Below are positions 12,317-28,391 of a stretch of DNA of 64,000 nucleotides, piece after piece (position 1 is the first letter of the stretch; every line of letters starts with the position of its first letter). Origin of the DNA: Vulcanimicrobiota bacterium (GTDB taxonomy: Bacteria; Vulcanimicrobiota; Xenobia; Xenobiales; JADMJV01); assembly GCA_050250895.1 (NCBI GenBank), contig JBFWNU010000001.1, positions 1,352,008 through 1,416,007 on the forward strand. The letters run 5' to 3'. The translations under genes were made by a program, and so were the position numbers. Under the pieces are notes generated by a model, which was not told the DNA's origin, made no database searches, and worked only from the letters and a program-made list of their open reading frames with translations.

Positions 12317-14029
12317 ATGGCGGCCACTGACTCGGAATCCCCGGGGACCGGCACGGAAGACGCTCCTGCGTATGTTCCCGGCAACCTGCAGCGGATTCTT
12401 GGTCGGATGTGGGCCTGCGACGACGACAAACTCGCGCAGGCCGCCTTGCTCCGCGACGCCCTCGGCTTCTTGACCCGGCTATTTGCCTCGCTTGGAGCCT
12501 GCGCCTGTCAGGAGTTCGAGTTGCTCGATGACGAACTCGAAGAACTGTGGAGCACCACCGCCACCGTGGGGGATTGCCGCAGGTTGCTCGAGTTATCGCT
12601 CAAGCGCCTGCAGCCCGAGATGAAGCACGACCTGGTGCGCCAGTTGATGGCGGTTTTCTTCGAGGTCGAAGGGGATACGTTCACCCCCCGCGAGTTCACC
12701 TCGCACCTGGGTTTCGGACCCGACTCCTCGGTGCCCCAGGTGGTCGATTTTTGCACCGGCCTGGCCGGCGCCTATGACGAGCACCTACCCATTCTCAGTA
12801 CCTGGCTCGAAGCCTCTCGGCCAACCTTGCTCGAATGCGACTATCACTACGAGGCCGGGGCCCAGTTCGGTCAACGCGAGTTGGTGGTCGGTTATCGTCA
12901 GTACCGACTGCGAACCCGTATGGCCGTAAGATTGCGTGAGGCCCGCGCCGATGTGGCCGGAGTCTCGGCGCTGGGGGCCATACCCCTGGGGGCGCCTATC
13001 ACCCCAGAAGAGACCTCCACGAGCGGGCTGACGGCTCTGGTCAGCGAGCTCGCCCGGGTCGAACCCAGCAACGCGGCCAAGGTAACCCCCATAGCCCTTC
13101 CCGCCCTCGGCTACCGCGTCGACTATACGGGCTTTGCCAAGGACCGCGAGGGGCGGCTCGGCCACGCCGGCAAGTTGATCCTGTTTTGTGCTGGAGAGGG
13201 CGTACTCGAGGGAAAGATCAGCTCGACCAATCCCAACTTGCGCATCCTGCCGGCCTTTTTCAAAGGCGAAGAGGTGCGCTGTAGTTTTTGGCTCGACCCA
13301 GCCGAAATGCCCCAACCCGAAGGTTATGTCGAGGTCGAGACAGCCAACGAGACTCGCAAGATTCCCATCGTGGCTTTGCTGCCCCGCTCGCGGATATCGG
13401 ACTTTGGACGCCTGTCGCTGGCCGCCATTCTGCTGGCCCCGGGGGGAGTCGGATTTCTCTATCTGTTCTGGGTGTTCTATTCGACCATTCGCCATGTCCA
13501 GACCGTGCTGGAGAAATACCTCGGCTTCGAATACCGGCAGATCATGCGGGGAGTTCCCGAGGTGGCCCTGCGCCATTCCGGGGTCGGAATTATCGACCTG
13601 GATGTCCAACCCAAGGCCGAGTCGGCTGCTCTTCTTTTTTTGCTGTTCGCGGTGCTGTGCCCGTTGCTGGTGACCAAAATTTTTCGCCACTACCCCCGCA
13701 ATCTGCAACGAGATCTCGGCTGGCTCTATTCGATAGGCCTGATCCTTCCAGTCCTGGGCTTTCTGGCGGTTTGGGACCTGCCGGCGCTCAATCATCCCAT
13801 GCTGGCCCATCACGAGCTGCTGTTTCTCAATTATCGCACTCACTTTCCGTTTTTTGCGGCCTTTAATCTGTTGGCCAGCGCCTATCTATTCTTGTCGGTG
13901 GGAGGACGGATCGACGCCTGGGCTGGAAAGGGGCCGCTGCGGGTGCTGGTGCCGACCGTCCTCTTCGTCGGCTACCTGGTGGCCGTCTTCGGATTGGTCT
14001 ATGGTCGGAGTTGGCTATCGATATGGTAA
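12317..14029 (+). CDS. Hypothetical membrane protein (helical N-domain, Ig/BACON-like domain, about 5 C-terminal TM helices)
   Basis: 570-aa ORF in operon; beta-rich GEGVLEGKISS...VEVET segment; hydrophobic C-terminus. Confidence 0.7.
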   Translation: MAATDSESPGTGTEDAPAYVPGNLQRILGRMWACDDDKLAQAALLRDALGFLTRLFASLGACACQEFELLDDELEELWSTTATVGDCRRLLELSLKRLQPEMKHDLVRQLMAVFFEVEGDTFTPREFTSHLGFGPDSSVPQVVDFCTGLAGAYDEHLPILSTWLEASRPTLLECDYHYEAGAQFGQRELVVGYRQYRLRTRMAVRLREARADVAGVSALGAIPLGAPITPEETSTSGLTALVSELARVEPSNAAKVTPIALPALGYRVDYTGFAKDREGRLGHAGKLILFCAGEGVLEGKISSTNPNLRILPAFFKGEEVRCSFWLDPAEMPQPEGYVEVETANETRKIPIVALLPRSRISDFGRLSLAAILLAPGGVGFLYLFWVFYSTIRHVQTVLEKYLGFEYRQIMRGVPEVALRHSGVGIIDLDVQPKAESAALLFLLFAVLCPLLVTKIFRHYPRNLQRDLGWLYSIGLILPVLGFLAVWDLPALNHPMLAHHELLFLNYRTHFPFFAAFNLLASAYLFLSVGGRIDAWAGKGPLRVLVPTVLFVGYLVAVFGLVYGRSWLSIW

Positions 14030-15060
14030 GAGTCTTCTTGATTCTCTGGTTGGCGGCGCTGCCGGCCCTGGCTCAGAGTTTGACGGGCACCGTGGAATTC
14101 TCGGTCCAGAATCTGGATCCTGACACCGTTTCCAGGGTCGAGTACACCCCTGACGGCAAGTATGTCTACGTCTTCTGCGATCTGCCCGACGGGGGCACCC
14201 GCGCGCTGGTCACCACCAACGTCGGTCTGGTGGTCAGCACCCAGGCTTTCGAAGAGGGCTGGATCGACACCATCGGATTCTCGCGCAACGGTAGCTCGGG
14301 GCTGATGTTGTCCAACTATGGTCGCGAGAAGACCTGGCGGGATTTCGATGGTCGCACCTCCAGACCCGTCGAGTTCGATCCGCCCGACTTCGAGGTGCAG
14401 GCGCCGTTTACCATCCTCGACGACTCGCACGGCCGGCTGGCTACCCGGGGCAGTGACGCCAGCGCCGACTCGAGCGGACTTTATCTCTTGAAAGTGGCCG
14501 GCGACAAGATCAAGCCCGAACTGCTCGCCCGGGATCGCGATATACTGGCCGAATTGGGGCCGCCCGGGCCGCTGCTGGGTTTTGGCTTGAGCCCCGATTT
14601 CGGCTGGTGCGTGCTATCGGTAGCCGGCCGAAAGGAAGGCGAGCTCGAACTCTTTCGCTACAATCTGACCCGCCATACGGGGCTACTGGTGGCGGCTGCC
14701 ACCAGCTTCTTGCCTCCGGCCCAGAGCCGCGGCGGCTATCTGGTCTTTGGGAGTCGCCAGGGAGAAGCCGTGAACTGGCAGTTTCAGAATCCCGACGGCA
14801 AGCTTGCTCCGATCGAGCTAGGGCCCGGAGTCATCGGTCTGGGCGTGCGTGCCTTCCCCGACCAGGATGAGTTCTTGCTGACGGGGGTCCAGGGGTCCCA
14901 AGCCTATATCTTCAAGTTGGGCTCGAGCACGGATTGGACGCCTCGCCAGCTCGAGGTGGCCGCGCCCGAGCCGCCTTTCTATCTGCGCACCGGCCCCGAC
15001 GGTCGCTGGTTGATCTGGACGCGCCAGGGGCTGAGCTTTTATCAGCTCGAGAGCCCGTGA
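14023..15060 (+). CDS. Exported protein, possibly beta-propeller
   Basis: Signal peptide MVRVFLILWLAALPALA; YTPDGKY, FSRNG, LSPDF and GPDGRW blade-like turns. Confidence 0.65.
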   Translation: MVRVFLILWLAALPALAQSLTGTVEFSVQNLDPDTVSRVEYTPDGKYVYVFCDLPDGGTRALVTTNVGLVVSTQAFEEGWIDTIGFSRNGSSGLMLSNYGREKTWRDFDGRTSRPVEFDPPDFEVQAPFTILDDSHGRLATRGSDASADSSGLYLLKVAGDKIKPELLARDRDILAELGPPGPLLGFGLSPDFGWCVLSVAGRKEGELELFRYNLTRHTGLLVAAATSFLPPAQSRGGYLVFGSRQGEAVNWQFQNPDGKLAPIELGPGVIGLGVRAFPDQDEFLLTGVQGSQAYIFKLGSSTDWTPRQLEVAAPEPPFYLRTGPDGRWLIWTRQGLSFYQLESP

Positions 15061-17222
15061 GTCTCGCTCAGCAAAGGGGCGAACTTGGCGTAGCTGTCTG
15101 TTAGCTTCTTGCGATAGTAGGCCAGATTGTAATCGGGATTGGCGGGATCGTAGTCCTTGAGCCGGCGGGCGTGGTTATAGGCACTCACCGAGGCTTTGTC
15201 GCCGGTGATGTAGTAGCGCAGGCTGTCGCCTGCCAGCAGGGGCCGCCGGGCCGCCAGGGCGAGCTCGTAGACAGCCGCCCGGTTGCGCGCGTTGGATTCG
15301 ATCTTGCGTCGATAACTGTTGGGCGAGTCGATGAGTGTCTCACGCTTGGCCAGGCCTTCGATGGGAATCAACCCGCTCTCAAGCCGCGCGAGGGTGTCGG
15401 CATACACCGACTCGAGGCTGGGCGAGCCTTCCAGAGCCGCCCGAATGAGTTGCTCTTGAAACTCGCGCAAGAACGGTTCAAGTGCTCGCGAGCGCAGACC
15501 CGAGCCTCGCGTGATCAGTTCGCCGTCGTGGGTCAACAGAGCATAGTTCTTCATTTTGTGGCAATACATGGCGCGATAATGACCGTCGAGCTCGACTTTG
15601 ACTCCGGCCGGTAACTCGCTATTGAGTTCTTCCATCCAGCCCTCGGGCGAGTGCTGGTCGCCTGGTAGGGTGAAGTAGATGCCGTCGGTATCGACCTCGA
15701 GCAAGGTGGCCCCGCGAGCCCGCAACCAATCCATCATGGTCGAGAGCAGTTCGCGTCCGATGGCGGTGACCTGAGCGGCCTGCTCGAAGTCGGCGAAGTT
15801 GCCCTGGCCGAAGCCGAGATAACCGTAGAAAGAGTTGATCAGAATCTTGAACGTCGTCTGCAAGCCTCCGAAGAAGGTGCGGTCGGGCTCGTTATCGGCC
15901 TCACGTTCGAGTTGGCGCGCCTGCAGGCGAAACTCTCGTAGGTCGGCCAGCATCCCGCGGAAGACATCGAGGCTGTCACCGGCCGGTCGGATCTTGTAGG
16001 AGAGGATGATGGACGGGTAAAGCGAGGCGACGTCGCAGTGAAACACGTCGGTGGCGATGCCAGCGTATTCCTGAGCGGTGAGTCCACCCGCGAAATCTTC
16101 GACTTCAGGCTTGGGTGGCACGGCGGTCCTTTGGCGCAGATACTCGCGCAGGAACAGACTATTGATCCGAGTGGCGTTGCCCCTCAAGATGACGTGCTCG
16201 TAGCGGAACGGAAAGATCTGCGCCTGAAGGAAGTAAGGGTAGCACAGGGTGCGGACCACGGCGGCCAGTTCAGCCAGTTCGCGCTCAGGTAGGCTCTGGC
16301 CCGCCCGAGGGGGCAGGGTCTTGCCGAGATGGCGGGCCACCTCATAGCGGTCGAAAGCCAGCAGTTCGCGACCGCTGACATCGTAGAGTTGGGTGAGAAT
16401 CCAGGAATCGACCAGATCCCTTCCATGGACATACCAGCGATTGTAATCGAGGGTCTTTTCGGCCACGAACATGCGGCTTCGTCGGTAGTGGATCTTTTCG
16501 CCCTCGCGGCCGAGTCGCAGCTCGACTTCGTGGCGGTGAGCTCGGTGGTAAAGAAAGGGAAGGTGAAACTTGAACAGGTCGTGTCCCTCGAGGATATCCG
16601 GGTCGCGCTCCACCACCAACTCTACGAAGCGAGCCAGGATCTCGGGCTCGGGGCCTTCGAGCACGGCGCACCAGCCGGTGGAATCGGCCAGGGCGATACG
16701 TTCGATAACGTCCTGGGTCGGATCGGGACGCTCGTCCTCGCTTTCTTCGTTGGGATAGACCAGAATCTGCAGGCGTTTGACCTGCTCGAGCGTCATCGAG
16801 CCGAACATAGTGCGGCCGGTGGCCATAAGATACTGCTGAGTTTGATCGCTCACGAAGAGTTGAGGAGAACGGGGGTGGCCGGCGGCCAGGCCCGAGGCCT
16901 TGGCGATGTGGCTGCTGATGCGCTTGATGTAGTTCCAGGTGGGGGTTCGCACCAGATAGTTGAAGTGTCCGTCTCCTTCGAGCCGTTCCAGGCGGTACTC
17001 CGGGGGCTTGCGGCTTTTCTCCAGGCCCAACAGATGGTCCGGGTCGGATAACCAGAGGAAGGGCTCGAACGTCTCCTGGGTGGCCCGCACCTCGTCGCCC
17101 TCCCGCCAATAGGCGGTAGCGCCGTCTTTGTGAGCCACCAGATTGACCAGACCGGGTCGTCGATCGGCGCCGAACAGGGCAGGGTTGGCTGAGATGCCGA
17201 GGCTATCCAGGTGGGCATGCAT
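15042..17222 (-). CDS. polB: Family B DNA polymerase (Pol II-like) with degenerate 3'-5' exonuclease domain
   Basis: Motif A DVASLYPSII, motif B KILINSFYGYLG, motif C EVDTDGIYF, KNYAL. Confidence 0.9.
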   Translation of the reverse strand: MHAHLDSLGISANPALFGADRRPGLVNLVAHKDGATAYWREGDEVRATQETFEPFLWLSDPDHLLGLEKSRKPPEYRLERLEGDGHFNYLVRTPTWNYIKRISSHIAKASGLAAGHPRSPQLFVSDQTQQYLMATGRTMFGSMTLEQVKRLQILVYPNEESEDERPDPTQDVIERIALADSTGWCAVLEGPEPEILARFVELVVERDPDILEGHDLFKFHLPFLYHRAHRHEVELRLGREGEKIHYRRSRMFVAEKTLDYNRWYVHGRDLVDSWILTQLYDVSGRELLAFDRYEVARHLGKTLPPRAGQSLPERELAELAAVVRTLCYPYFLQAQIFPFRYEHVILRGNATRINSLFLREYLRQRTAVPPKPEVEDFAGGLTAQEYAGIATDVFHCDVASLYPSIILSYKIRPAGDSLDVFRGMLADLREFRLQARQLEREADNEPDRTFFGGLQTTFKILINSFYGYLGFGQGNFADFEQAAQVTAIGRELLSTMMDWLRARGATLLEVDTDGIYFTLPGDQHSPEGWMEELNSELPAGVKVELDGHYRAMYCHKMKNYALLTHDGELITRGSGLRSRALEPFLREFQEQLIRAALEGSPSLESVYADTLARLESGLIPIEGLAKRETLIDSPNSYRRKIESNARNRAAVYELALAARRPLLAGDSLRYYITGDKASVSAYNHARRLKDYDPANPDYNLAYYRKKLTDSYAKFAPLLSETHGLSS

Positions 17223-17292: not shown

Positions 17293-17613
17293 GTGGCTCT
17301 TCAACCCGTCAAAGTCGAGACTGACAACGATAAGGGCATTCTGACCATTAGCTGGAGCGATGGCACGGCTTCGCGTCACTCCATGGATCAGTTGCGGCGG
17401 GACTGCCCCTGTGCTACCTGCCGGGCCGAGCGCGAAAAGATGGCGAAACCTGGTCCGTCGCTACGGGTCATCAGCGGTCCTGTGCTCAGCGAAGGCCAGG
17501 CCCGCATCCTCGAGTTCTCGCCGGTGGGGCGATATGCGCTGGCTTTCGTGTGGAATGACGGGCATTCGACCGGCATTTACACCTACGATTCTTTGCTGGA
17601 CCACCAGCTTTAG
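17293..17613 (+). CDS. DUF971 / GBBH-like N-terminal domain protein
   Basis: WSDG, LRRDCPCATC, VGRYAL..WNDGHSTGIY; GAGGAG RBS. Confidence 0.9.
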   Translation: MALQPVKVETDNDKGILTISWSDGTASRHSMDQLRRDCPCATCRAEREKMAKPGPSLRVISGPVLSEGQARILEFSPVGRYALAFVWNDGHSTGIYTYDSLLDHQL

Positions 17614-17688
17614 TCTTTTAGACTTTTTTCAGGCGCTCCCGGTAGATTATCAATGCAAGAGAAATTCTTCCGAAGGAGTGGACGCAAG

Positions 17689-17907
17689 ATGATTAACCAG
17701 GGCATCAAATTGACTCAGGCTCCAGCCAGCTTCACCGCGATGACCGCCTCCCAGGGTCCTTACGACGCTGCGGCGCCCACTCAGGACACCACCGACGAGA
17801 TGGTTTGGGACGGCCGCACCGGCACTTTCACCTGGTTTCAGGGTCCTCCGGACCTGGCCAAGTTGCTGCAGTCGGGCGGCGGTGGAGCTTGCAGCTTTAT
17901 CGTCTGA
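17689..17907 (+). CDS. Small hypothetical protein (72 aa)
   Basis: AAGGAG RBS before ATG; GC3-rich codons; followed by terminator. Confidence 0.6.
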   Translation: MINQGIKLTQAPASFTAMTASQGPYDAAAPTQDTTDEMVWDGRTGTFTWFQGPPDLAKLLQSGGGGACSFIV

Positions 17908-17926
17908 CCATATAGCGAGACGAACG

Positions 17927-17955
17927 AAAAAGGGAGCCGGCCGGCTCCCTTTTTT
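17927..17955. terminator. Bidirectional intrinsic terminator
   Basis: Perfect inverted repeat AAAAAGGGAGCCGG/CCGGCTCCCTTTTT between convergent genes. Confidence 0.85.
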
Positions 17956-18493
17956 AGTGGATGTGCCCTTCCTTTTCTAACGGCACATCGGGGGCCGCTT
18001 CACCCGAGGCCTCCTTCTCGGCTCGAGCCAGCAAACGCTGTGCGAACGGGTCTTCCACGAGGGTGTCGGCGGCCGTCTTCAGGATGGCCAACTCGCGATC
18101 GTGCATCCCCACCTCGTGATAGGCTGCTCCCAGGTCGCGCTTGAGCAGGTCGTTGTCAGGGTTCGCCTCGACTGCTCTTTGATAGATGGCGACTTCACCC
18201 TCGTGGTCGCCCGCGAAGTGAACGGCTGTGGCCCACTCTTCCCAAGCGGCGTAATAAGCGGGGTAAATCTCGACGCACTTCTTGAGCTTCTCGATGGCCA
18301 CGCCGTCTTTGCCGTCGTGGACGGCCTGGTGGGCTTCCATAAAGAGCGTGTCCGCCTGCTGATAGAGTTTCCACTCCTGGTAGCCGCGCGAGGCTCCCCA
18401 CAATCCGAAAGGTAGCAGCAGCAACACCAGCACGATTTCGATCTTTTGCAGCTTCTGCTTTTCCTTGTCTTTGTAAAATAGGATAAAGCTCAT
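17954..18493 (-). CDS. Membrane-anchored TPR protein
   Basis: N-terminal TM (IVLVLLLLPFGLWG); TPR-like helices (AIEKLKKCVEIYP, YQRAVEANP). Confidence 0.75.
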   Translation of the reverse strand: MSFILFYKDKEKQKLQKIEIVLVLLLLPFGLWGASRGYQEWKLYQQADTLFMEAHQAVHDGKDGVAIEKLKKCVEIYPAYYAAWEEWATAVHFAGDHEGEVAIYQRAVEANPDNDLLKRDLGAAYHEVGMHDRELAILKTAADTLVEDPFAQRLLARAEKEASGEAAPDVPLEKEGHIH

Positions 18494-18628
18494 AGTTCTC
18501 CCTTTTGCTCTGTGTTCACCGTTATACCCATTTCGGGTCGGGTCGGTCACTCCTGGCTCGATCCAGCATGAAGGTTCCCACGCGAGGGGACAGAATTACG
18601 GGCCCAAACAGTGTAGCCTGGAGGAATT

Positions 18629-20224
18629 GTGAGAGCGAAGTATTGGATAGTGGGTCTGCTGCTGGCCTGTTTTTGCCTGCCGGCGTTGGCAGATGAAGCA
18701 CCCGTGGCCCGAGTCCGGAAGATCGACGGCAAGAAGCTGTTTTTTCAGCGAGAAGGCAAAAGCAACTGGTTGCTGGCCTTTCCGAACATGAAGAACTATC
18801 TCAAAGATAATCTTCGTACCGATGCCCAAACTAAAGCCGGTATTCAGTTCTTCGCCGGCGGCGAAGCTGGTCTCAATGCCGACACCGAGGTCGAGATTAT
18901 CTCGGCCACGGCTGTCGAAGGGGCCGGCAAGAACAAAGTCAAGGTCAACGCCGGCACGGTTTGGGCCAAAGTGGCCAAGCAGAAGGAAGAACTCCAGATT
19001 CAGACGGCCGGCGGGGTGATGGGTATCAAAGGCACCGAATTCGTGGTGCAGGTGATGCCTGACGGCTCGACCCAACTCTCGGTACTCGAAGGTCTGGTCG
19101 AGGTGGACTCTGGCTCCGGCCAGGCCTACGCCGCGAAACCCGGACATCGCGTGCAGTTCGGCGGCGGCCGGATCATCAACGCCGTGGTCTATCCCGAGGG
19201 TGAACTGCGCAACCTGTTGCGCGACGAATTGGGTCCCTTCGCCGGCCTGGTGGCCGATTTCTTGCTGGGACGATACTTGCACGTGGGCAGCCTGCTACCG
19301 CGCGAGGCGAGTTATTTCGTCGGCTACGGGCCCGCTCTGCGCAGTCCGTTCCGGGGCGCCTCCTATTACTCCATGCGAGGAGTCGGCGTCAGCAGCGCCC
19401 TGCTCAATCTGCCCTCGCGCTCCCCCAGTTACTGGCGCAGCCTCACCCGACCCAGTATTCCCAGTCTTCCAGGTGGCATTCGCTTTCCCCAGGCCCAGCG
19501 CGACGAAGTCAAGTTTGGCGCCGAAGAGCCAAACTGCCCGACCAATCTCGAGCCCAACGAGAAAGATGTCGATGGGGCTCCGACCTTCAAATGGAAGGGC
19601 ATCGATGGAGCCCGCCGCTACGGCATCATTGTCAGCGACAAGCCTTTCTCGGGGGTCAAGAAGCTCGAGGAAGACGCTCTCTGGTACGGCCAGGCCGACG
19701 GCAACGAGTTGACCTATCCTGAAGACGCGCCAGCTCTCGAGAAGGGCAAGCGCTATCACTGGCGCGTGATTCCGCTCACAGCCGATGGGAGTCCCACGGG
19801 CGAGGCATCCGAGACCTTCTTCAAGTCCGAGGGTTTCAAGCCTAGCAAACAGCCCAGTCTTGACTTCGCCTCGGGGCTGGTGCCGCTCGAACAAAAACTC
19901 GGGGCTCAGCGGCCCAAATTCCAATGGACCGCCGTGGAAGGCGCCAGCCGCTACGCATTGTTGGTCTCGAGCGCCGAGGTCGAGCCCGAGAAGATGGGCG
20001 AGGATCTCGACACGCTGGTATGGTCGGCCGAGACCGACCAGTTGTCGGTTGATTTTCCTGAGGCCGGCCCCAGTTTTGCCGCTGGTCGCTACTACTGGTT
20101 AGTGGTAGGTCTCGATGGCGAGGGCAAGCGGGTCGGCAAAGTCAGCCAGACCTGGTTTGAAACCGACGGTTGGGAAGGTCAGGGCGTGGAGCTTGCTCCC
20201 CTCGGCCCGGCCGCCGGAAAATAG
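18629..20224 (+). CDS. Exported FecR-domain protein with two tandem FN3/DUF928-like domains
   Basis: Signal peptide; DNLRT, IQTAGGVMGIKGTEF and VLEGLVEV (FecR); two copies of P.F.W..I/VxGA.RY...LxW...P..AP...G.Y.W.V. Confidence 0.8.
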   Translation: MRAKYWIVGLLLACFCLPALADEAPVARVRKIDGKKLFFQREGKSNWLLAFPNMKNYLKDNLRTDAQTKAGIQFFAGGEAGLNADTEVEIISATAVEGAGKNKVKVNAGTVWAKVAKQKEELQIQTAGGVMGIKGTEFVVQVMPDGSTQLSVLEGLVEVDSGSGQAYAAKPGHRVQFGGGRIINAVVYPEGELRNLLRDELGPFAGLVADFLLGRYLHVGSLLPREASYFVGYGPALRSPFRGASYYSMRGVGVSSALLNLPSRSPSYWRSLTRPSIPSLPGGIRFPQAQRDEVKFGAEEPNCPTNLEPNEKDVDGAPTFKWKGIDGARRYGIIVSDKPFSGVKKLEEDALWYGQADGNELTYPEDAPALEKGKRYHWRVIPLTADGSPTGEASETFFKSEGFKPSKQPSLDFASGLVPLEQKLGAQRPKFQWTAVEGASRYALLVSSAEVEPEKMGEDLDTLVWSAETDQLSVDFPEAGPSFAAGRYYWLVVGLDGEGKRVGKVSQTWFETDGWEGQGVELAPLGPAAGK

Positions 20225-23200
20225 ATGTCGACAGCTCGGTTCCGACTCATCGGAACCGCCGTAATCCTCGGATTACTGGTTGGATTGGCTCTGAGTTGGC
20301 AGCTGCCCAGCTCGGAGCTTTTTCTATCCGACATCGAGGTGCTGGCGGCTCGCCAGCTTCTTCCGGCCCGAGGCCGTGACGAACGACTTCGACTGGTGGC
20401 CGACTATCCTGACCAAGCCATCAGGCGGGACGTTGCCGCCGATGATCGCCAGGAGTTCGTGCTCGAGGTGCTGGCTCGAGGTGCCCGCGGGGTGCTGGTG
20501 ACATCCCCCGACTTTCTCGAGGGCACTCAGCTCGTGGAGGCGCTCGACGAGCTGCCCGTGGCCCTCTTTACCAGAGACTCTCTCGAAGCGATCGCGATCG
20601 AGGATTCTGACGGCCTGATTCGGCGGTTTCGCTGGCAGGCCGAGGCGGCCGGTCCTTTGAGAAGGGCCTTCCACTGGCTCGATGAGACCACACCCGAACT
20701 CGACTCCCGAGGCCTCTTTCGCCCTTTGTTGGCGCGTGCCGACCAGGATGTCGCGGCCGAGCGTTACTTCAACTCCTTCAAGCCGATTTCGTTGGCGAGT
20801 TTGCTCGAGCCCGACTTTCGCGAGGGTTTCTTGAGCCGGGTCGAAGGCTCGCTGGTGATCGTGGGCGACTTCGAGATGGAGGCGACCGGCGATGAATTCC
20901 ACACCAGTGGCGGCAAGCTGATGACCCTGACGGGGACCGCAGCCCTGCTGGACAGCCTTCTGGGCAAAGCCTTGCTCAAGGCCTGTCCGCTGGTGGTGTG
21001 GTTGCCGGGGGCGGCCGTCTTTCTCTGGTTGGCGGCCCTGGCTGCCATCCGTTTTCGACCCCTGTCAGCCTGCTTGGTCTTGATTTTGCTCGAATGGGTT
21101 AGCTTCACCGGTGGCGTCCTGGTGGCCACCTACGCGCAGCTGTTGATCCCGCTCGTGACGGGAGTGATCGGGATGCCGGTGGCCATGGGGTATGTCTTTC
21201 TCGAGCAACTGCGACGCTCGCGCGAGGTGGGCGAGGAGTTTGGGGCCAGGGAAGGCGTGCAGCTGGGAGGCCGTGAGCGTGAGGTGACGATCCTGTTCAC
21301 CAATCTGCCCGAGTATCTCAAGTTGCTCGAGAAACAGGGCGCCGCTGGTCAACTGAGTCGGCGTCGCGAATACAACCAGGTCGTGCTCGAGGCCTGCGCC
21401 CGCTACGGTGGGCGAGTGGTCGACTATCAGGGTGACGCCCAGATGATCGGCTTTGGCCTGGAGGAGAACGCCCCTCACGCCCAACAGGCTACGGCGGCCG
21501 CCTTGCTGGTGGTCGAGCGGGTGCAGGCGCTGGCGGGTAGCTGGGGAGTGGGCAACCCTGACCTTCTTAAAGTGCATGCCGGGGTTTGCACCGGGCCCGT
21601 GGCTCAGGGGCACGTCGGAGCCCGCCAGAAGATGGATATCGCGCTCATCGGTGACACCACCAACACCGCGGCCCGCCTGATGGGCGCAGCCATGAAGCTG
21701 GACGAACGGGTGGTCATTTCGTTGCCCACCCGCGAGGGATTGGGACAGGGCGTCGAAGGGCGCGAGCTCGAACCCGTCAGTCTGAAGGGCAAGGCCAAGC
21801 CGGTGCCCATCTTCGCTCCCGACCGCCTGCTCGAGCATCCTCCCGAGGTCGAGACGGACCAGGTGGTAGGCTCGATGGTCGAGTTGCCGCGAGACCGGGG
21901 CGCCAGCGGGGTGGCCATTTTGCTATCGACGCTGCTGGGCACGCTGTTGTGCGCCAACCCGGTCAGCGAGCAGCTGCTCCAGGGGGCTGAACAGGACCTG
22001 TATGATTTACGCCACCGGATGCTGGCGGCCGATGCTCCGGCCGAGGTGGTGGTGGCAGGCATCGACGAAGAGAGCCTCAATACGTTGGGGCCCTGGCCCT
22101 GGCCGAGGGCCTATCATGCCCAGATTGCGACCAACCTGTTCGAGGCTGGCGCCAGGGCTGTCTTCTACGATGTCCTTTTTGAAGAGGCTGGGGACGACGA
22201 ATATAGCGATCAAGAGCTCAGCCAGGCAGTCAAGGACTATCCCAATCTGGTGCTGGCCATGGCTTTGACCCGGGATCAGTTTGCGGTGGTCCCGGTCCCT
22301 CTCATGCCCGGGCTCGACGAAGACCAGATGCGAAAGCGTCTTCAGGTCGGTCACATCAACACCCGGCGCGACGCTGATGGAGTGGTTCGCAGCGCCATTC
22401 TGGCGGCTTGGGACCAGCAGGATCGTTTGTGGCCATCGGCGGCGCTGTCTTTATTGGGACACGCCACCGACAAGTCCTATCAGCAGCTCGAAGCTGACCG
22501 GCAACGACTGAGGCTGGGCAATCGCGAACTTCCGCTGCGGCCCGACCCTCAGAAGCCGTACGAGACGCTGATTGTCTATCGCCCTCCAGTGACCGGGCCG
22601 CAGGCCCAGGATCGGCCTGAGGGCTATGTTTCGGTTCATCGCCTGCTCGACCCCGAAGACCCCTTTTTCAAACGAGCCAGGGGCACGGTGGTGCTGATCG
22701 GACAAAACGTCAAGGACGAAAGAGACCTCTTTCGGACTCCCCTGGGTCCCATGAAAGGGGTCGAGATCCATGCCCAGACGCTGGCCACTTTGTGGAGTGG
22801 ACCCAGCCTGATTCAGGCCGGGCGGATTCGCTTTCTCTATCTTTTCGGTTGCTGCTTGCTGATGGGCGTAGCCACGACCCTGGCCCCAACCCGGGGGCGA
22901 ACCCTGGTCGTGGTCTTTTCGAGCGGCCTCTTCCTGGTCTTTCTCAACCTGGCCCTCTATCTCACCGGTTGGTGGTTTCCCCTGGCGGCCACCTGTGTGG
23001 GGGCCATCGGCTCGGCGGTCGCGGTGGTGCTGATGCGGTTCGTCTCTTCCCTGGACGCTGCTACGCGCTTTTTGCCGCGTGAGGTGGTGCACGCCCTGTT
23101 GTTCGAGAACCGTTTGCATGAGGGCCTGGTCGAGGCCACCGTCTTGTTGACCGACATTCGTGGCTACACCGCCATCTCCGAGACCCGTTCCCCGGTGGCG

Positions 23201-23692
23201 ATGCTCAATCTGCTCAACGACTATCACCAGCGCACCGTCAGTTGCTATGAGCGTTACGGTGGCTTGACCCTGACCTATCAGGGTGACGCGCAGATTGTGG
23301 TTTTTGGCGCTCTCGGCCGGCGCAAGCATCCCACCGCTGACGCTGTGCGAGCGGCCCTCGAATTGCAGCGGATAGTGCATCATTTTCGCCGCGACTATGG
23401 GATCGAGAGCGCCTCGGATTTCGCGGTGGGGGCCGGTTTGTGCACCGGTGAAGTGGCCATTGGCGTGCTGGGCGGCACCGGCCAGAAGCAGTATTCGGTC
23501 GTGGGCGAGACCGTGCGCAAGGCCCATAAGGTCCAGGGAATGAGCGACGAATTGGGGGCCTCGGTCATTCTCGACGCGGCCTCGGCGGCCCGTTGCGAGC
23601 AGAAGGTAGAAATGCGCTTCCTGGGTGAGGTCGAAATGAAGGGGCTGGAGCATCCCGAGGCGCTCTACGAGGCGGTGGATATGCTGTCCTAG
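20225..23692 (+). CDS. Membrane class III nucleotide cyclase with tandem CHASE2-TM-cyclase x2 architecture
   Basis: CHASE2 motifs (DSDGLIRR; IDEESL..LGPWPWPR, DADGVVR, GVEIHA) and two cyclase domains (YQGDAQ twice, CTG twice). Confidence 0.88.
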   Translation: MSTARFRLIGTAVILGLLVGLALSWQLPSSELFLSDIEVLAARQLLPARGRDERLRLVADYPDQAIRRDVAADDRQEFVLEVLARGARGVLVTSPDFLEGTQLVEALDELPVALFTRDSLEAIAIEDSDGLIRRFRWQAEAAGPLRRAFHWLDETTPELDSRGLFRPLLARADQDVAAERYFNSFKPISLASLLEPDFREGFLSRVEGSLVIVGDFEMEATGDEFHTSGGKLMTLTGTAALLDSLLGKALLKACPLVVWLPGAAVFLWLAALAAIRFRPLSACLVLILLEWVSFTGGVLVATYAQLLIPLVTGVIGMPVAMGYVFLEQLRRSREVGEEFGAREGVQLGGREREVTILFTNLPEYLKLLEKQGAAGQLSRRREYNQVVLEACARYGGRVVDYQGDAQMIGFGLEENAPHAQQATAAALLVVERVQALAGSWGVGNPDLLKVHAGVCTGPVAQGHVGARQKMDIALIGDTTNTAARLMGAAMKLDERVVISLPTREGLGQGVEGRELEPVSLKGKAKPVPIFAPDRLLEHPPEVETDQVVGSMVELPRDRGASGVAILLSTLLGTLLCANPVSEQLLQGAEQDLYDLRHRMLAADAPAEVVVAGIDEESLNTLGPWPWPRAYHAQIATNLFEAGARAVFYDVLFEEAGDDEYSDQELSQAVKDYPNLVLAMALTRDQFAVVPVPLMPGLDEDQMRKRLQVGHINTRRDADGVVRSAILAAWDQQDRLWPSAALSLLGHATDKSYQQLEADRQRLRLGNRELPLRPDPQKPYETLIVYRPPVTGPQAQDRPEGYVSVHRLLDPEDPFFKRARGTVVLIGQNVKDERDLFRTPLGPMKGVEIHAQTLATLWSGPSLIQAGRIRFLYLFGCCLLMGVATTLAPTRGRTLVVVFSSGLFLVFLNLALYLTGWWFPLAATCVGAIGSAVAVVLMRFVSSLDAATRFLPREVVHALLFENRLHEGLVEATVLLTDIRGYTAISETRSPVAMLNLLNDYHQRTVSCYERYGGLTLTYQGDAQIVVFGALGRRKHPTADAVRAALELQRIVHHFRRDYGIESASDFAVGAGLCTGEVAIGVLGGTGQKQYSVVGETVRKAHKVQGMSDELGASVILDAASAARCEQKVEMRFLGEVEMKGLEHPEALYEAVDMLS

Positions 23693-23761
23693 CCGGCCCG
23701 GAGAGGTCCTGTTGGGCGCCAGAGCGAAAGGACGGGCCGATTATTGGGAGGGAATTGTAGA

Positions 23762-25354
23762 ATGAGCGTGGACCTGACGAAATACGGCATCAAGGTGGAG
23801 ACGATCAAGAGAAACCTGGTGCCGGCGCGGCTCTACGAGCGAGCCCTGCGCGGAGAACGCGGGTCGGAGATGGTTGCCAACGGCGCTCTGGCGGTGAATT
23901 CGGGCGAGAAGACCGGGCGCAGCCCCAAAGACAAGCGCATCGTCGAACACGATCAGAGCAAAGGCGATGTCTGGTGGGGCGATGTCAATATTCCCCTCGA
24001 TGAGGTCACCTATCGCATCAACCACGAGCGGGCTATCGACTATCTCAATACTCGCGACGAAATCTACGTCTTTGATGGCTTCGCCGGCTGGGATCCCGAG
24101 TATCGCCTCAAGGTGCGCATCATCTGCACGCGACCCTATCATGCCCTGTTCATGCACAACATGCTGATTCGCCCGACCCACGAAGAACTCGAGAATTTTG
24201 GCGAGCCGGACTATATCGTGATCAACTCTGGCGCTTTTCCAGCCAATCGCTACACCCGCGGCATGACTTCCGACGCCAGCGTGGTGCTCAATTTCGAAGA
24301 GGGTCGGATCGTGATTCTGGGCACCGAGTATGCGGGCGAGATGAAGAAGGGCGTCTTCAGCGTGATGAACTATCTGATGCCCAAGCGCAAGGTGCTTCCC
24401 ATGCATTGCTCGGCCAACGAGGGCGAGGACGGCAAGGTCAGCCTGTTCTTCGGGCTCTCGGGCACCGGCAAGACCACTCTGTCGGCTGACCCGGCCCGCA
24501 AGTTGATCGGTGATGATGAACACTGCTGGACCGATAACGGAGTCTTCAACATCGAAGGCGGATGCTACGCCAAGTGTCTTGGCCTGCGGGGCGATTCCGA
24601 GCCCGAGATCTTCAACGCTATTCGCTTTGGTTCGGTATTGGAGAATGTCGTCTTCGATCGCGAGACCCGAGAAGTCGACTTCGACGACGCCAGCCTGACC
24701 CAAAACACCCGGGCCTCGTACCCGATTGACTATATTCCCAACGCCAAGATTCCGTGTGTGGGGGGCCACCCCAACCACATCATCCTGCTTACCTGCGACG
24801 CCTTCGGCGTCTTGCCCCCGGTCAGCCAGTTGACACCCGAGCAAGCGATGTATCACTTCATCAGTGGCTATACCGCCAAGGTCGCCGGCACCGAACAAGG
24901 CGTGACCGAGCCTCAGGCCACCTTCTCGGCCTGTTTCGGAGCTGCTTTCATGGTCTGGCACCCCAGCGTCTACGCCGAATTGCTGGCCGAGAAAATGCGC
25001 AAACACGACACCAAAGCCTGGTTGATCAACACCGGTTGGTCGGGCGGGGCCCACGGGGTGGGGCAGCGTTTTAAGTTGGCCTATACCCGGGCCATCATCG
25101 ATGCCATCCACGCTGGTCAACTCGATGGCGTCGCGACCCAGGTTGACCCGGTTTTCAAAGTAGCCGTGCCCACGGCCTGCCCGGGAGTGCCCAGCGAGCT
25201 GTTGATCGCTCGCAGTACCTGGACCGACGGAGCCGCCTATGACGCCACTGCCAGCAAGCTGGCCGACCTGTTCCACCAGAACTTCGAACAGTTTCGCGAG
25301 GGATCGAGTCAGGCTATTTGTGCAGCAGGGCCGCGCGTTACCGCCCATTCTTAA
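23762..25354 (+). CDS. pckA: Phosphoenolpyruvate carboxykinase (ATP)
   Basis: [42 protein letters not shown]. Confidence 0.97.
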
Positions 25355-26065
25355 GTGCGGGTTCTCAGCTTCAATCTGCGCTGCGATATGCCGCCCATCG
25401 GCTGGTCCGAGCGCCGGGGCGAGGCGGCCGAGCTGGTCAGACGTTGCAACCCCGATGTGATCGGTTTTCAAGAGGTGCTCCCCCATCAGCGGGCCGACCT
25501 CGAACAAGACCTGCCTGGCTACCAGGTCTGTGGTCGGGGCCGGGACGCAGACGGCGGCGGCGAGCAGTGTTGTCTCTTCGTTCGGGCCGGCATCCGGATC
25601 GTGGAGCAGGACACCTTTTGGTTCGGACCTCATCCCGACCAGCCCGGTAGTCGGGCCTGGGACGCGATGTTCCCACGCATCTGCAGTTGGGTCCGGTTGC
25701 GCCGAGCCGGTGGCGAGGTGCTGGTGGCCAACGTCCACCTCGACCACCAGGGCGAGATATCCCGGCAGCAAGCGGCCGCCCAGTTGGCCGCCTGGCTCAG
25801 CGACCCCTGTATCTTGATGGGCGATTTCAATGCCGAGCCCGACTCGGTGGCCCTCACCAGCCTGCGTCAATGGCTGACCGACGCCTACTTCGCCGTGCAC
25901 GGGTCCTGGATTGGGACCTACCACGAGTTTGCCGGTGGCCATGACGGCCCCTGTATCGACTACATCCTGGTGGCGGGGGTTGAAATCGCCGCGGCCGAAG
26001 TGGTGGTCGCCGGTCCTCCCTTTCCGTCAGACCATCATCCTGTTATGGCCGATCTGATCCTTTAA
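25355..26065 (+). CDS. Endonuclease/exonuclease/phosphatase family protein
   Basis: SFNLR, GFQE, NVHLD, GDFN, IDYI, SDHHPV. Confidence 0.92.
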   Translation: MRVLSFNLRCDMPPIGWSERRGEAAELVRRCNPDVIGFQEVLPHQRADLEQDLPGYQVCGRGRDADGGGEQCCLFVRAGIRIVEQDTFWFGPHPDQPGSRAWDAMFPRICSWVRLRRAGGEVLVANVHLDHQGEISRQQAAAQLAAWLSDPCILMGDFNAEPDSVALTSLRQWLTDAYFAVHGSWIGTYHEFAGGHDGPCIDYILVAGVEIAAAEVVVAGPPFPSDHHPVMADLIL

Positions 26066-26127
26066 CGCTCTTGTGACGCCGGGGCGGTAAAGTTTCCTCA
26101 GTGAGATGAGCATTGGTTGGACCTAAC

Positions 26128-26153
26128 GCCCCGGCGAAAGCCGGGGCTTTTTC
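26128..26153 (+). terminator. Intrinsic terminator
   Basis: GCCCCGGC-GAAA-GCCGGGGC followed by TTTTT. Confidence 0.8.
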
Positions 26154-26176
26154 TTTGCCAAAGACTCTGGCCAGGC

Positions 26177-26548
26177 TCAAAGATGGCCGTCGATCACCAC
26201 TCGCAGGGGCGCCCGCCCCAGGTGTGGCGGCGCGTAGACCAGGGCCGCCACTGGGTCCAGACTGACCACTTCTTGCCGTTCATCCCAGTCGATGTCATTG
26301 GGATGATACAGCACCCTGTTCGAGTTTTGCTGCAAATCGACCAGCAGAGACTCGAGTGAGGCCAACATGCCCGGCGGCCCCGGCGGACACAAGCAGCCAT
26401 CGTCGTAGGAGCAGACCACGAAGTCAAACCAACCCGGCCCCATCTGCCTCGCGCCGGTCAGTTCAAGCTTGGGATGCCGGACTCTTAGCTCGGTCAGATC
26501 GAGGCGACAACCCGAGCATTCGATAATGACGATGGCGCACACAACCAC
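26177..26548 (-). CDS. Hypothetical Cys-containing protein
   Basis: 123-aa ORF with CSGC and C..DDGCLC; fills the gap divergent from an AT-rich promoter. Confidence 0.5.
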   Translation of the reverse strand: MVVCAIVIIECSGCRLDLTELRVRHPKLELTGARQMGPGWFDFVVCSYDDGCLCPPGPPGMLASLESLLVDLQQNSNRVLYHPNDIDWDERQEVVSLDPVAALVYAPPHLGRAPLRVVIDGHL

Positions 26549-26744: not shown

Positions 26745-28391
26745 ATGACGATGGAAATCTACGGACAGCCCTCAATTGGAAGACTCGCTCCCGACTACGC
26801 CGCTCGCGAAGCTCGCGCCGCCCAGGTGCAGATCGCCCTGACCGAAGGTCTGGTTTCGCTCCAGGGACTCGGCCAGGGCCAACTCGGGGCGCATCGTCAG
26901 TACTTCGGCTCGGTGATGGGTGACATCCAGACCCTGCGCTGCCCCTGCGAATTCCCGCAGTTCCCGGCTTCCCCCGGTGGCCCTCAGGGCGGCTACGGCC
27001 CCAACCCCTTCTTCCCGCAGATGCCCGGCGCCTGGCCTGGCGGTATGCCCCAGGGCCTCGACCCGATGATGCTGATGATGCAGATGATGCAGCAGCAGTA
27101 TGACAACAACATGATGATGCTCTTTATGGTGATGATGCAGCAGCAACAGCAGCAGTTCATGCAGATGATGATGATGTTGATGGGCCAGCAGCAGCAGCAG
27201 CAGCCCCCCTGCCATCCTCAGCCCCGCCCGCCACACCACCCGCACCCTCACCCGCCGGTGACTCCCCCGGTGTCGGTCGAGCCGCCCGTCTTGCCTGAGC
27301 CCCCTACCGTCGACCCCGAGCCGGTCGCTCCCCAGCCGGTGGATCCGGTCGAGCCCAGCGAGCCGCCGGTCGAGCCCTCGCCGCCCACCGAGCCTGTGGC
27401 GCCGGTGACCCCTTCTCAGCCGCCTCGCGAGCCCTCACGCACCGAGAAGGTCGACAAGTTCGTGGCCGCCCTCCGTCAGGCGGGCAGTGATGTCTCGCAG
27501 GACCAGATTCGAGAATTGGCCGTGCAAAACGGTCTGTCTGAACAAGATGCGAACGACTTGATCGAGTTTCTGGCCGAGGTCGACGAAGGCGACATCGACT
27601 TCTCTGACAACGAAGTGATCGAGATGCTCGGAATCTACAAAAAGGCCGCCGGTGCAGACGGTGATATTCGGGTGTTGTCCGACGCTCTGCTCGACTACGC
27701 CAATAGTGACGTGGTCACCGACAGTCTCAGCGAATCTTGCTACAACGCGCTGGTGCGTATTGCTGGCAACCCGCCCGAAGCGGGCACTCTGACCCGCCGC
27801 TTGACCGAGATCGACGGCTGGGATTGGGGCGGCATCGACCTGCACGACGACGCCATGCGCAACACTCTACGGGCCTTCAAAGATGCGCCTCCGACGAGCG
27901 AAACGCCGGCCGCTCCCCCGGCTAGCGAAGCTCCTGAGCAGGCTCGTCAGCGCAAAATGTCCGACTTCATGGGCAAGCTGCGCCGGGCCGGCAACGACGT
28001 CTCCCAGGACCGCGTGCGCGAACTGGCCGTCGAAAGTGGCCTGACCGAAGCAGACGCCAACAACCTGATTGACTTTCTCTCGGAAGTAGACGGTGGCGAC
28101 ATCGACTTCACCGACAACGAAGTGCTCGAGATGACCCGCATCTTCGAGAAGGCCGCCAACGCCAACGGCGACGTCAAAGTGCTCGCCTCGGCGCTGCTCG
28201 ACTACGCCAACAGCGATGTGGTCACCGACAGCCTTAGCGAAGAGTGCTACGACGCCCTGGTGCGAGCCGCCGGCAATCCCCCCGAAGCCGGCACCCTAAC
28301 CCGCCGTCTGCTCGACGTCGACGGTTGGGACTGGGGCGGGATGGACCTGCATGACGATTCGATGCGCAACATTCTGCAAGCCTGGCAGTAG
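26745..28391 (+). CDS. Hypothetical protein: Met/Gln-rich segment, Pro-rich linker and two ~147-aa acidic repeats
   Basis: RBS, GC3-rich codons, internal duplication, terminator immediately downstream. Confidence 0.85.
   Translation: MTMEIYGQPSIGRLAPDYAAREARAAQVQIALTEGLVSLQGLGQGQLGAHRQYFGSVMGDIQTLRCPCEFPQFPASPGGPQGGYGPNPFFPQMPGAWPGGMPQGLDPMMLMMQMMQQQYDNNMMMLFMVMMQQQQQQFMQMMMMLMGQQQQQQPPCHPQPRPPHHPHPHPPVTPPVSVEPPVLPEPPTVDPEPVAPQPVDPVEPSEPPVEPSPPTEPVAPVTPSQPPREPSRTEKVDKFVAALRQAGSDVSQDQIRELAVQNGLSEQDANDLIEFLAEVDEGDIDFSDNEVIEMLGIYKKAAGADGDIRVLSDALLDYANSDVVTDSLSESCYNALVRIAGNPPEAGTLTRRLTEIDGWDWGGIDLHDDAMRNTLRAFKDAPPTSETPAAPPASEAPEQARQRKMSDFMGKLRRAGNDVSQDRVRELAVESGLTEADANNLIDFLSEVDGGDIDFTDNEVLEMTRIFEKAANANGDVKVLASALLDYANSDVVTDSLSEECYDALVRAAGNPPEAGTLTRRLLDVDGWDWGGMDLHDDSMRNILQAWQ
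27066..27203 (+). repeat. ATG/CAG trinucleotide-rich tract encoding poly-Met/poly-Gln
   Basis: MMLMMQMMQQQYDNNMMMLFMVMMQQQQQQFMQMMMMLMGQQQQQQ. Confidence 0.9.
27438..28385 (+). repeat. Intragenic tandem duplication (27438-27878 and 27945-28385, offset 507 nt)
   Basis: Shared blocks ALLDYANSDVVTDSLSE, AGNPPEAGTLTRRL and DGWDWGG.DLHDD. Confidence 0.92.

Follow-up and report, generated by a model that had tools for sequence, protein, structure and literature searches.

A bacterial membrane protein with paired CHASE2 modules as a candidate single-chain pseudoheterodimeric class III cyclase, and its two-gene relatives

A stretch of 64,000 nucleotides from a Vulcanimicrobiota bacterium (assembly GCA_050250895.1, contig JBFWNU010000001.1, positions 1,352,008 to 1,416,007 of the forward strand; hereafter the window) carries, at 20225-23692 (+), an open reading frame (ORF) of 1155 amino acids with no internal stop, whose product appears to be a membrane-bound, single-chain pseudoheterodimeric class III nucleotide cyclase. 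This reading, in which catalysis is deduced from sequence and structure models, is given a probability of about 75%. The protein is built from two collinear modules, each comprising one transmembrane (TM) helix, a CHASE2 domain, three further TM helices and a class III cyclase domain, and the two cyclase domains, D1 and D2, have complementary defects that would leave one complete active site between them. The computed basis consists of the architecture and predicted topology, the residue pattern and its conservation, split two-gene forms in related genomes, phylogenetic trees, synteny and a structure model.

Both cyclase domains are recognized by Pfam PF00211 (cut-off 21.9 bits), D1 at aa 351-525 (21275-21799; 46.4-49.4 bits) and D2 at aa 970-1142 (23132-23650; 61.3 bits). 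The second ectodomain, aa 579-867 (21959-22825), is a canonical CHASE2 domain that scores 165.7-184.7 bits with PF05226 (cut-off 26.3) and has the expected TM flanks, with one helix before it and three after. The first, at about aa 27-252 (20303-20980), reaches 21.7-23.4 bits with the same model over aa 120-273, which is under the cut-off. Because a profile-profile alignment of the two ectodomains (hhalign) extends over 208 columns with a probability of 98.5% and an E-value of 3.9e-15, ectodomain 1 is, as judged by profile comparison, a true but degenerate CHASE2 homologue. Its mean column conservation across the family is 0.38, as opposed to 0.53 for ectodomain 2, and it lacks the PWPR motif of the latter, in which 16 residues are family-invariant. 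One canonical and one divergent CHASE2 domain had been proposed in the original prediction, a reading of this DNA made from its letters alone, and Pfam and hhalign bear this out.

Eight hydrophobic segments in a 1+3+1+3 pattern were found by hydropathy scan and in the structure model: TM1 at about aa 6-26 (20240-20302; helix 3-26 in the model), TM2-TM4 at about aa 253-325 (20981-21199), TM5 at about aa 559-577 (21899-21955), and TM6-TM8 at about aa 868-945 (22826-23059). The halves of the protein also align collinearly (aa 188-530 against 802-1148, 27% identity, E 1e-24), running from the ectodomain end through three hydrophobic helices to the cyclase end. Given the collinear halves and the helix pattern, each half is taken to be a complete CHASE2-cyclase module, and the predicted topology places both catalytic domains on the same, cytoplasmic side of the membrane.

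The case for a composite active site rests on individual residues, whose positions were assigned by HMMER alignment to solved cyclases (CyaB, 3r5g; Cya2, 2w01; OaPAC) and by a joint alignment. The roles of the standard class III catalytic positions are established knowledge, taken here, as are the features of other known systems below, from published sources. The best PDB matches are to solved class III cyclases, and Cya2 is the solved catalytic domain closest to D2 (E 8.9e-17). D1 has N360 in place of the first metal-binding Asp, D400 at the position of the base-binding Lys or Glu, D404 as the second metal Asp, A473 as the other base-position residue, a transition-state Asn/Arg pair formed by N480 and R484, and K521. 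D2 has the metal Asp pair D977 and D1021, T1017 at the Lys position, S1091 at the second base position, R1098 in place of the transition-state Asn, and K1102 in place of the Arg. Two metal Asp residues on one chain are thus found in D2 but not in D1, while the transition-state Asn and Arg occur together in D1 but not in D2. The canonical base-recognizing pair, namely Lys with Asp, Thr or Ser for ATP or Glu with Cys, Gly, Ala or Ser for GTP, is seen in neither domain, D1 having Asp/Ala and D2 Thr/Ser.

The original prediction had described two class III domains with complementary defects, in an order with the C2-like domain N-terminal and the C1-like domain C-terminal, and both statements agree with the residue alignments. 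The motifs that it quoted are located where it had placed them: FTNLPEY at aa 358, IGDTTNTAAR at aa 475, KGKAKP at aa 521, TDIRGYT at aa 976, TYQGD at aa 1017, VGAGLCTG at aa 1068, and GETVRKAHK at aa 1094. Its description of D1 was right about the loss of the first metal Asp and overlooked the second, D404, which is kept throughout the family; it likewise passed over the lack of the canonical Lys in both domains.

A search of 5.8 billion protein clusters yielded an aligned set of 42 family members. The closest are a 95%-identical protein of 1155 aa from another assembly and an 83%-identical partial sequence labelled Candidatus Eremiobacteraeota, while 39 further homologues of 896-1218 aa, mostly full length, are 29-37% identical to the window protein. 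With about 40 full-length homologues and the complementary pattern in 42 of 42 members, the architecture is clearly retained in relatives. In D1, Asp is never found at the first metal position (0/42; Asn in 22, Glu in 13, others in 7), and Asp at the Lys position, D404, the Asn and the Arg are each present in all 42, with Ala at A473 in 41 and the K521 position held by Lys in 40 and Arg in 2. In D2, counting the sequences that cover each column, D977 is kept in 41/41, and T1017, D1021 and the Arg at the Asn position in 40/40; the Arg position is occupied by Lys in 33, His in 5, and Arg and Gly in 1 each, and K1139, the counterpart of K521, is variable (Lys in 24). For comparison, 80 cyclase domains of single-module CHASE2 proteins have both metal Asp residues in 80/80, the Asn in 77/80 and the Arg in 78/80. 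Because the complementary pattern is fixed in a family whose members, two close relatives aside, are only 29-37% identical to the window protein, it is, on these alignments, far beyond chance.

This pattern bears directly on whether the protein might instead be two independent cyclases on one chain, each homodimerizing with a second chain and separately active or regulated. According to a review, most bacterial class III cyclases are homodimers, which would speak for such an arrangement. A D1-D1 pair, however, would have no first metal Asp in either site and a D2-D2 pair would have neither Asn nor Arg in either, and since each of the 42 fused proteins and of the 17 split pairs described below shows the complementary defects, this arrangement is considered highly improbable.

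Structure models were examined for the predicted association of D1 with D2. A full-length AlphaFold2 model built from the family alignment has a mean predicted local distance difference test score (pLDDT) of 82.0 and a predicted template modelling score (pTM) of 0.67, with pLDDT below 50 at aa 545-558 in the linker between the modules. When this model was used in Foldseek, full-length entries of the adenylyl cyclases AC5, AC9 and AC8 ranked first (E 2.3e-16 to 1.8e-11). Human soluble adenylyl cyclase (sAC), with C1 and C2 on one chain, matched at a target-normalized template modelling score of 0.64-0.69 over about 850 columns, the soluble domains of AC9 at 0.62, and the single catalytic domains CyaB and Cya2 at 0.83-0.88. 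Root-mean-square deviations of the long alignments are 20-28 Å, since the membrane and ectodomain parts do not match. A match to one domain could cover only about 0.4 of sAC, and for this reason the model is thought to pack D1 against D2 like a C1-C2 pair within one chain. A separate complex prediction of D1 with D2 scored 0.52, against 0.00 for the best control, with runs agreeing on at least 90% of contacts and a partner pLDDT of at least 82. Of 80 solved complexes, 58 attain the mark used for this complex score, as do 2 of 110 mismatched pairs; scores of 0.60 or lower belong to only 7 of those 80 and to both mismatches, so that 0.52 counts as weak support. The intramolecular dimer that the original prediction had suggested modelling is seen in the AlphaFold2 model and weakly supported by the complex score, and both could echo solved cyclase dimers.

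An alternative is heterotypic pairing between two chains, with D1 from the first meeting D2 from the second, which would give two composite sites per dimer. The ancestral split system pairs two separate polypeptides, the top Foldseek match is titled as a dimeric form of human AC5, and sequence alone would read the same for pairing within one chain or between two. The single-chain model, by contrast, has D1 and D2 together within the chain (pTM 0.67, and 0.64-0.69 against sAC), and fusion of a heterodimer would most simply fix a one-to-one intramolecular pair. Pairing between chains is therefore judged improbable, and an intramolecular D1-D2 pair is preferred.

Evidence of a different kind comes from related genomes, 41 of which were searched in six frames; 20 regions were taken and their ORFs scored with D1 and D2 profiles. 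In many of these genomes, parts resembling module 1 and module 2 lie in separate, adjacent frames. Seventeen loci (L010-L026) have a D1-type gene followed by a D2-type gene, adjacent and on the same strand, with a stop/start overlap of 4 nt in 7 of the 17. The first metal position of the split D1-type genes is Asn in 9, Ser in 3 and Gly in 5, and the remaining Asp, Asp, Ala, Asn, Arg and Lys are present in 17/17. Likewise, the split D2-type genes have both metal Asp residues, the Thr, and the Arg at the Asn position in 17/17, the Arg position being occupied by Lys (14) or Glu (3). The Pfam CHASE2 cut-off is exceeded by four of the five split D1-type genes that were scanned (29.6-77.7 bits). 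Split D1-type genes align to about aa 536 of the fused protein and D2-type genes from about aa 567, which leaves a linker of about 30 residues, the fusion joint, at about aa 537-566 (21833-21922), a region that also includes the low-pLDDT segment. Fused and split systems coexist in several genomes; in one of them (G013, contig 41), a fused gene (L007) and a split pair (L018) lie about 2.5 kb apart on opposite strands. The genome of the window itself has only the fused D2-type copy, plus two single-module genes with Asp at the base-binding Lys position (Asp-type singles). The occurrence of D1 and D2 as separate genes in some genomes and as one protein in others would be a classic sign of physical partnership, and in this case each half would also depend on residues that the other supplies.

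The split loci also invite the suspicion that the window ORF is an artefact, in which an assembly or sequencing error has joined two neighbouring genes. The halves are indeed separate genes in relatives, often with overlapping stop and start codons, and a single-base error could join them. Against this are the 95%-identical protein of the same 1155-aa length from another assembly, the roughly 40 full-length homologues, the presence of both domain types in one protein in 15 representative clusters, the separate clade that fused forms make up in both domain trees, and the distinct linker of about 30 residues. An artefact is thus close to negligible as an explanation, and the original prediction's treatment of the ORF as genuine is upheld.

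Two trees, both from quick searches and without bootstraps, address how the fused form arose. The first included 78 cyclase domains, 49 of them from single-module relatives, and recovered a D1 clade (support 100, starred) and a D2 clade (99, starred), with D1 and D2 together set apart from all 49 single-module relatives (95, starred). The second, with 99 rows and an outgroup of 16 canonical domains, took in the split genes as well as three catalytically complete Asp-type singles, of which L027 and L028 belong to the genome of the window and L029 to a different family of the class. It again gave D1 and D2 clades (99 and 97, both starred), joined with the Asp-type singles in one clade against the 16 canonical domains (99, starred), and it placed the complete Asp-type singles outside both D1 and D2. 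The D1 and D2 subtrees mirror each other, with split forms basal and fused forms a single clade in each (Shimodaira-Hasegawa-like approximate likelihood ratio test, 80 and 87). All six loci checked from other classes of the phylum are complete Asp-type single-module genes.

Because the complete singles fall outside both halves and the fused clade is nested among the split forms, the trees suggest a history in which a homodimeric Asp-type CHASE2 cyclase underwent tandem duplication, the copies became a two-gene heterodimer by subfunctionalization, and the two genes fused once. The original prediction of duplication with subfunctionalization is thereby supported in outline and altered in its course, as the duplication was apparently not internal to the gene and passed through an adjacent two-gene stage that is still present in relatives. 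It would also follow from these sequences that D1 took over its Asp/Ala base pair from single-module ancestors with a full catalytic set, and that the pair did not arise by decay.

How such a protein might work can be outlined from the residues. The pairing of D1 with D2, catalysis at a single site, the substrate, and the roles of the CHASE2 domains and FecR are what we infer from the computed results. D1 and D2 would pack head-to-tail as a catalytic dimer and share one composite active site, to which D2 would supply the metal-binding D977 and D1021 and the phosphate loop TDIRGYT, and D1 the transition-state N480 and R484, the phosphate-binding Lys K521 (for the gamma-phosphate), and the base pair D400/A473. 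The mirror site, made up of N360, D404 and the LPxY loop of D1 and T1017, S1091, R1098 and K1102 of D2, would be unable to bind the first metal, and could serve as a regulatory pocket or be closed by a salt bridge between D404 and R1098; alternatively, these two invariant residues could hold a ligand. Input would come through both CHASE2 domains in the periplasm, the conserved and the degenerate one, probably together with a FecR-like periplasmic co-sensor encoded upstream, and the product would be a cyclic nucleotide.

Which nucleotide is made is harder to say, as Asp/Ala is neither an adenylyl cyclase pair (Lys with Asp or Thr) nor the usual guanylyl cyclase pair (Glu with Cys). In the HMMER alignment the base positions of Cya2, whose PDB entry is titled a guanylyl cyclase, are occupied by Glu and Gly, and the Toxoplasma gondii cyclase is described as having a Glu/Ala base pair on its N-terminal domain, with inverted domain order. 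Asp/Ala likewise joins an acidic residue to a small one, and by analogy with Cya2 (Glu/Gly) and the alveolate guanylyl cyclases (Glu/Ala), cyclic GMP (cGMP) is favoured, at roughly even odds, over cyclic AMP (cAMP), a plausible though distinctly weaker candidate, or another cyclic nucleoside monophosphate (cNMP).

Several observations weigh against a working cyclase of this design. The canonical base-binding Lys is in neither domain, so that an unusual substrate, or none, is conceivable. D2 has a Gly where many class III enzymes carry a phosphate-binding Arg; this residue had been raised as a caveat in the original prediction and is indeed present, although it makes a weak caveat, as 33 of the 80 canonical single-module relatives likewise have Gly. 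The Glu found at the first metal position of D1 in 13 of 42 members might still bind metal, and the second site is possibly not dead in all of them. The complex prediction is weak, and its outcome, like that of the AlphaFold model, may simply mirror cyclase dimers that are already known. The trees support a single fusion moderately (the 80 and 87 given above, unstarred), and long branches could distort quick trees. Finally, no cNMP-binding gene was found next to fused or split loci within the flanks taken.

Some of these points would favour a pseudoenzyme that no longer makes cyclic nucleotides and serves instead as a receptor, as a scaffold or as a sensor that binds nucleotides, its cyclase folds being used for dimerization or ligand binding. 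The missing canonical Lys in D1 and D2, the Ala at the second base position of D1, the Gly at the Arg position of D2, and the lack of a cNMP receptor gene beside the fused and split loci in the flanks taken would all fit such a protein. On the other hand, the very residues that one composite site requires (D977, D1021, N480, R484 and K521) vary little or not at all, in contrast to the replaced or variable residues at the symmetry-related positions, and complete relatives that lie beside cNMP-binding genes have the same Asp at the Lys position. A pseudoenzyme is on balance unlikely, if slightly less so than pairing between chains, and a catalytic D1-D2 pair is the preferred reading.

The relatives just mentioned were found in genomic context. 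The window's genome contains 30 cyclase-domain and 27 cNMP-binding-domain matches, and both of its Asp-type singles directly precede a cNMP-binding gene, in one case CRP/FNR-like (239 aa) and in the other encoding 550 aa with HD-type domains; one Asp-type gene in another class does the same. The entries for an Asp-type single and its following cNMP-binding gene are L027:2541-3257 (+) and L028:1641-3290 (-) in the window's genome and L035:4460-4999 (+) in the other class. Since cNMP-binding genes directly follow them, this arrangement supports the view that the Asp-type cyclases are working enzymes that make a cyclic nucleotide. A separate variation was seen among the 80 single-module CHASE2 domains, 30 of which have Arg at both base-recognizing positions with an otherwise complete catalytic set (P0092-P0118, a group of 705 aa, e.g., P0107); one such Arg/Arg single-module cyclase is labelled Stutzerimonas stutzeri.

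The distribution of the family was followed in three ways. In a scan of 301 sampled genomes of the phylum by strength of D2-type match, strong matches were found in all 15 genomes of the window's family and in two other families of the same order (5/5 and part of 19), while the largest family of the phylum had a D2-type match at E 1e-30 or better in 0 of 207 genomes. A bit-score threshold was tried as a classifier for D2-type domains and dropped, as three genomes of other classes with 140-146 bits proved to have complete Asp-type single-module genes; D2-type assignment was made by residues only, and hits of 109-131 bits were left unclassified. When bacteria and archaea, represented by one genome per species, were scanned with a pattern, 79 loci emerged, of which 16 are D1-type, 1 is complete Asp-type (with an Armatimonadetes label), 61 encode complete cyclases whose Lys position is occupied by a residue other than Asp, and 1 is unscored. 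Eleven of the D1-type loci are labelled Xenobia, Vulcanimicrobiota, Eremiobacteraeota, UBP9 or simply "bacterium", and five come from "uncultured Burkholderiales" bins. The Burkholderiales labels on these third-party assemblies (L037, L042, L047, L048 and L050) look doubtful. Last, an exhaustive profile search of 1.84 billion representatives, with the best 150 scored, was headed by 41 D1-type proteins at 219 bits or more, comprising 15 fused to a D2-type second domain, 2 truncated fused forms, and 24 proteins of 196-611 aa. Complete Asp-type proteins rank next, and 60 such domains are found among the best 150 representatives.

The mammalian adenylyl cyclases AC1-AC9 are the most familiar counterparts, in that they too have two membrane blocks and two class III domains on one chain, with one active and one degenerate site. 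A duplication and fusion of a bacterial-type monomer has been proposed as the origin of these transmembrane adenylyl cyclases (tmACs), the same course as proposed here for the window protein. Unlike theirs, however, the order in the window protein is C2-like and then C1-like, each of its halves combines 1+3 TM helices with a large CHASE2 domain in the periplasm as opposed to six TM helices, its base pair is Asp/Ala as opposed to Lys/Asp, and G-protein and forskolin features are absent. The duplication also appears to be independent, D1 and D2 being each other's nearest relatives among CHASE2 cyclases. The guanylyl cyclases of alveolates (the ATPase-GC of Paramecium, Plasmodium and Toxoplasma) share the inverted order, with nucleotide and transition-state residues on the N-terminal domain and the two metal Asp residues on the C-terminal one, as well as an N-terminal base pair of an acidic residue and Ala (Glu/Ala in theirs, Asp/Ala in the window). 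They differ in being eukaryotic and of separate origin, with a P-type ATPase-like domain, 6+6 TM helices and no CHASE2 domain.

The sAC protein (ADCY10) and bacterial sAC-like tandems such as P0088 also have two class IIIb-like domains per chain, with one active site and one regulatory pseudo-site, and the first domain of P0088 has an Arg at the Asn position, as does D2. In contrast to the window protein, they are soluble, are ordered C1 and then C2, have AAA/TPR tails, and lack CHASE2. In sAC, Arg176 links the pseudo-site to a metal Asp as a bicarbonate switch, to which R1098 of the window protein may be a parallel, offered as a lead only. Among single-module CHASE2 cyclases, Synechocystis Cya2 (2w01) has the same module plan and is likewise acidic at the Lys position; with a full catalytic set per chain, these proteins should, by the usual bacterial rule, be homodimers with two equivalent sites, unlike the window protein. 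As regards descent, D1 and D2 group with each other and with the Asp-type CHASE2 cyclases against other CHASE2 cyclases, including the sAC-like P0088, and not with the C1/C2 duplication of tmACs or sAC, so that on these trees the likeness to tmACs, sAC and alveolate guanylyl cyclases is convergent.

In a 2022 review, fused dimeric class III cyclases are said to be unknown in bacteria, and the advantage that fusion might bring is posed as a question. The former statement is too strong for the databases, which include uncharacterized soluble tandem forms such as P0088. Other, unrelated tandems with seemingly complementary defects, which are undescribed as far as the searches made here reach, occur among the best 150 representatives, with the C1-like domain first in P0157, P0176, P0180, P0193 and P0228 and the C2-like domain first in P0242, P0243 and P0259; three members, all metagenome proteins, were found for the family of P0243. 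Fused pseudoheterodimers may have arisen several times outside eukaryotes. A literature search that left subscription journals and supplementary cyclase catalogues mostly outside its range found no description of the present family or of a natural two-gene bacterial cyclase heterodimer, and the terms "heterodimer", "two cyclase" and "tandem" do not occur in the text of PMC2447327. The novelty would then lie in a bacterial cyclase family that is membrane-bound and has its CHASE2 sensors in pairs, in a heterodimer stage that occurs naturally as two genes, and in a lineage that has every stage from the homodimer to the fused form.

Animal signalling relies centrally on pseudoheterodimeric cyclases, in which one site is active and the other regulatory, and that these arose from a bacterial homodimer through duplication and fusion has been inferred without living intermediates. 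This family appears to replay, in bacteria, the path thought to have produced the mammalian adenylyl cyclases. As the homodimeric, two-gene and fused forms are closely related and in some cases share a genome, the effects of subfunctionalization and fusion on activity, regulation and sensor coupling become measurable. CHASE2, moreover, is a widespread sensor, and the family offers an asymmetric pair of it to dissect; the family also draws attention to a clade of considerable size whose cyclases have Asp at the base-recognizing position. It is tempting to go further and to speculate, though doubtfully when taken as a whole, that one class (Xenobia/UBP9 of Eremiobacterota) keeps all three stages of the tmAC path, often within one genome; that the Asp/Ala site makes cGMP or a non-canonical cNMP; and that the degenerate site, with its invariant Asp404 and Arg1098, is an allosteric switch through which the state of a second sensor, the degenerate CHASE2/FecR one, reaches the only catalytic centre.

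The FecR connection comes from the gene immediately upstream, at 18629-20224 (+), which encodes a FecR-domain protein of 531 aa (Pfam FecR, 48.9 bits, plus an Ig-like domain) with a hydrophobic N-terminus and Ig-like C-terminal repeats, and whose stop codon abuts the ATG of the cyclase gene. FecR-like homologues adjoin the cyclase gene or genes in most of the fused, split and single-module loci examined, upstream of split pairs and on either side of fused genes, and a FecR-like ORF is present in four of six Asp-type single-module loci from other classes. In Burkholderia and Pseudomonas, a FecR-domain protein reportedly adjoins a CHASE2 histidine kinase, so that the link between FecR and CHASE2 would be independent of the output domain. 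Those operons resemble the window locus in encoding a secreted FecR protein beside a 1+3-TM CHASE2 sensor, and differ in having a histidine kinase output and a FecR protein with LysM, where the window has a cyclase output and Ig-like repeats.

Downstream, at 23744-26065 (+), are genes for a phosphoenolpyruvate carboxykinase (ATP) and a protein of the endonuclease/exonuclease/phosphatase family, with short gaps or none, followed 3' of the latter by a strong, GC-rich terminator-like hairpin at 26128-26147. These two genes may be co-transcribed with the FecR-cyclase pair, though no functional tie between them and the cyclase was seen. A scan of 17500-26500 gave no sigma-70-like promoters, the sigma-70 model being uninformative for this phylum. 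Elsewhere in the window, ORFs of 349-570 aa at 9033-10607, 12317-14026, 14011-15057 and 26745-28388 (all +) have no Pfam match at E 0.001 or better, and two such ORFs flank a Na/Pi cotransporter-like gene at 10607-12307. Finally, an ORF of 726 aa at 15045-17222 (-) matches family B DNA polymerase at 74 bits, together with a weak exonuclease-domain match.

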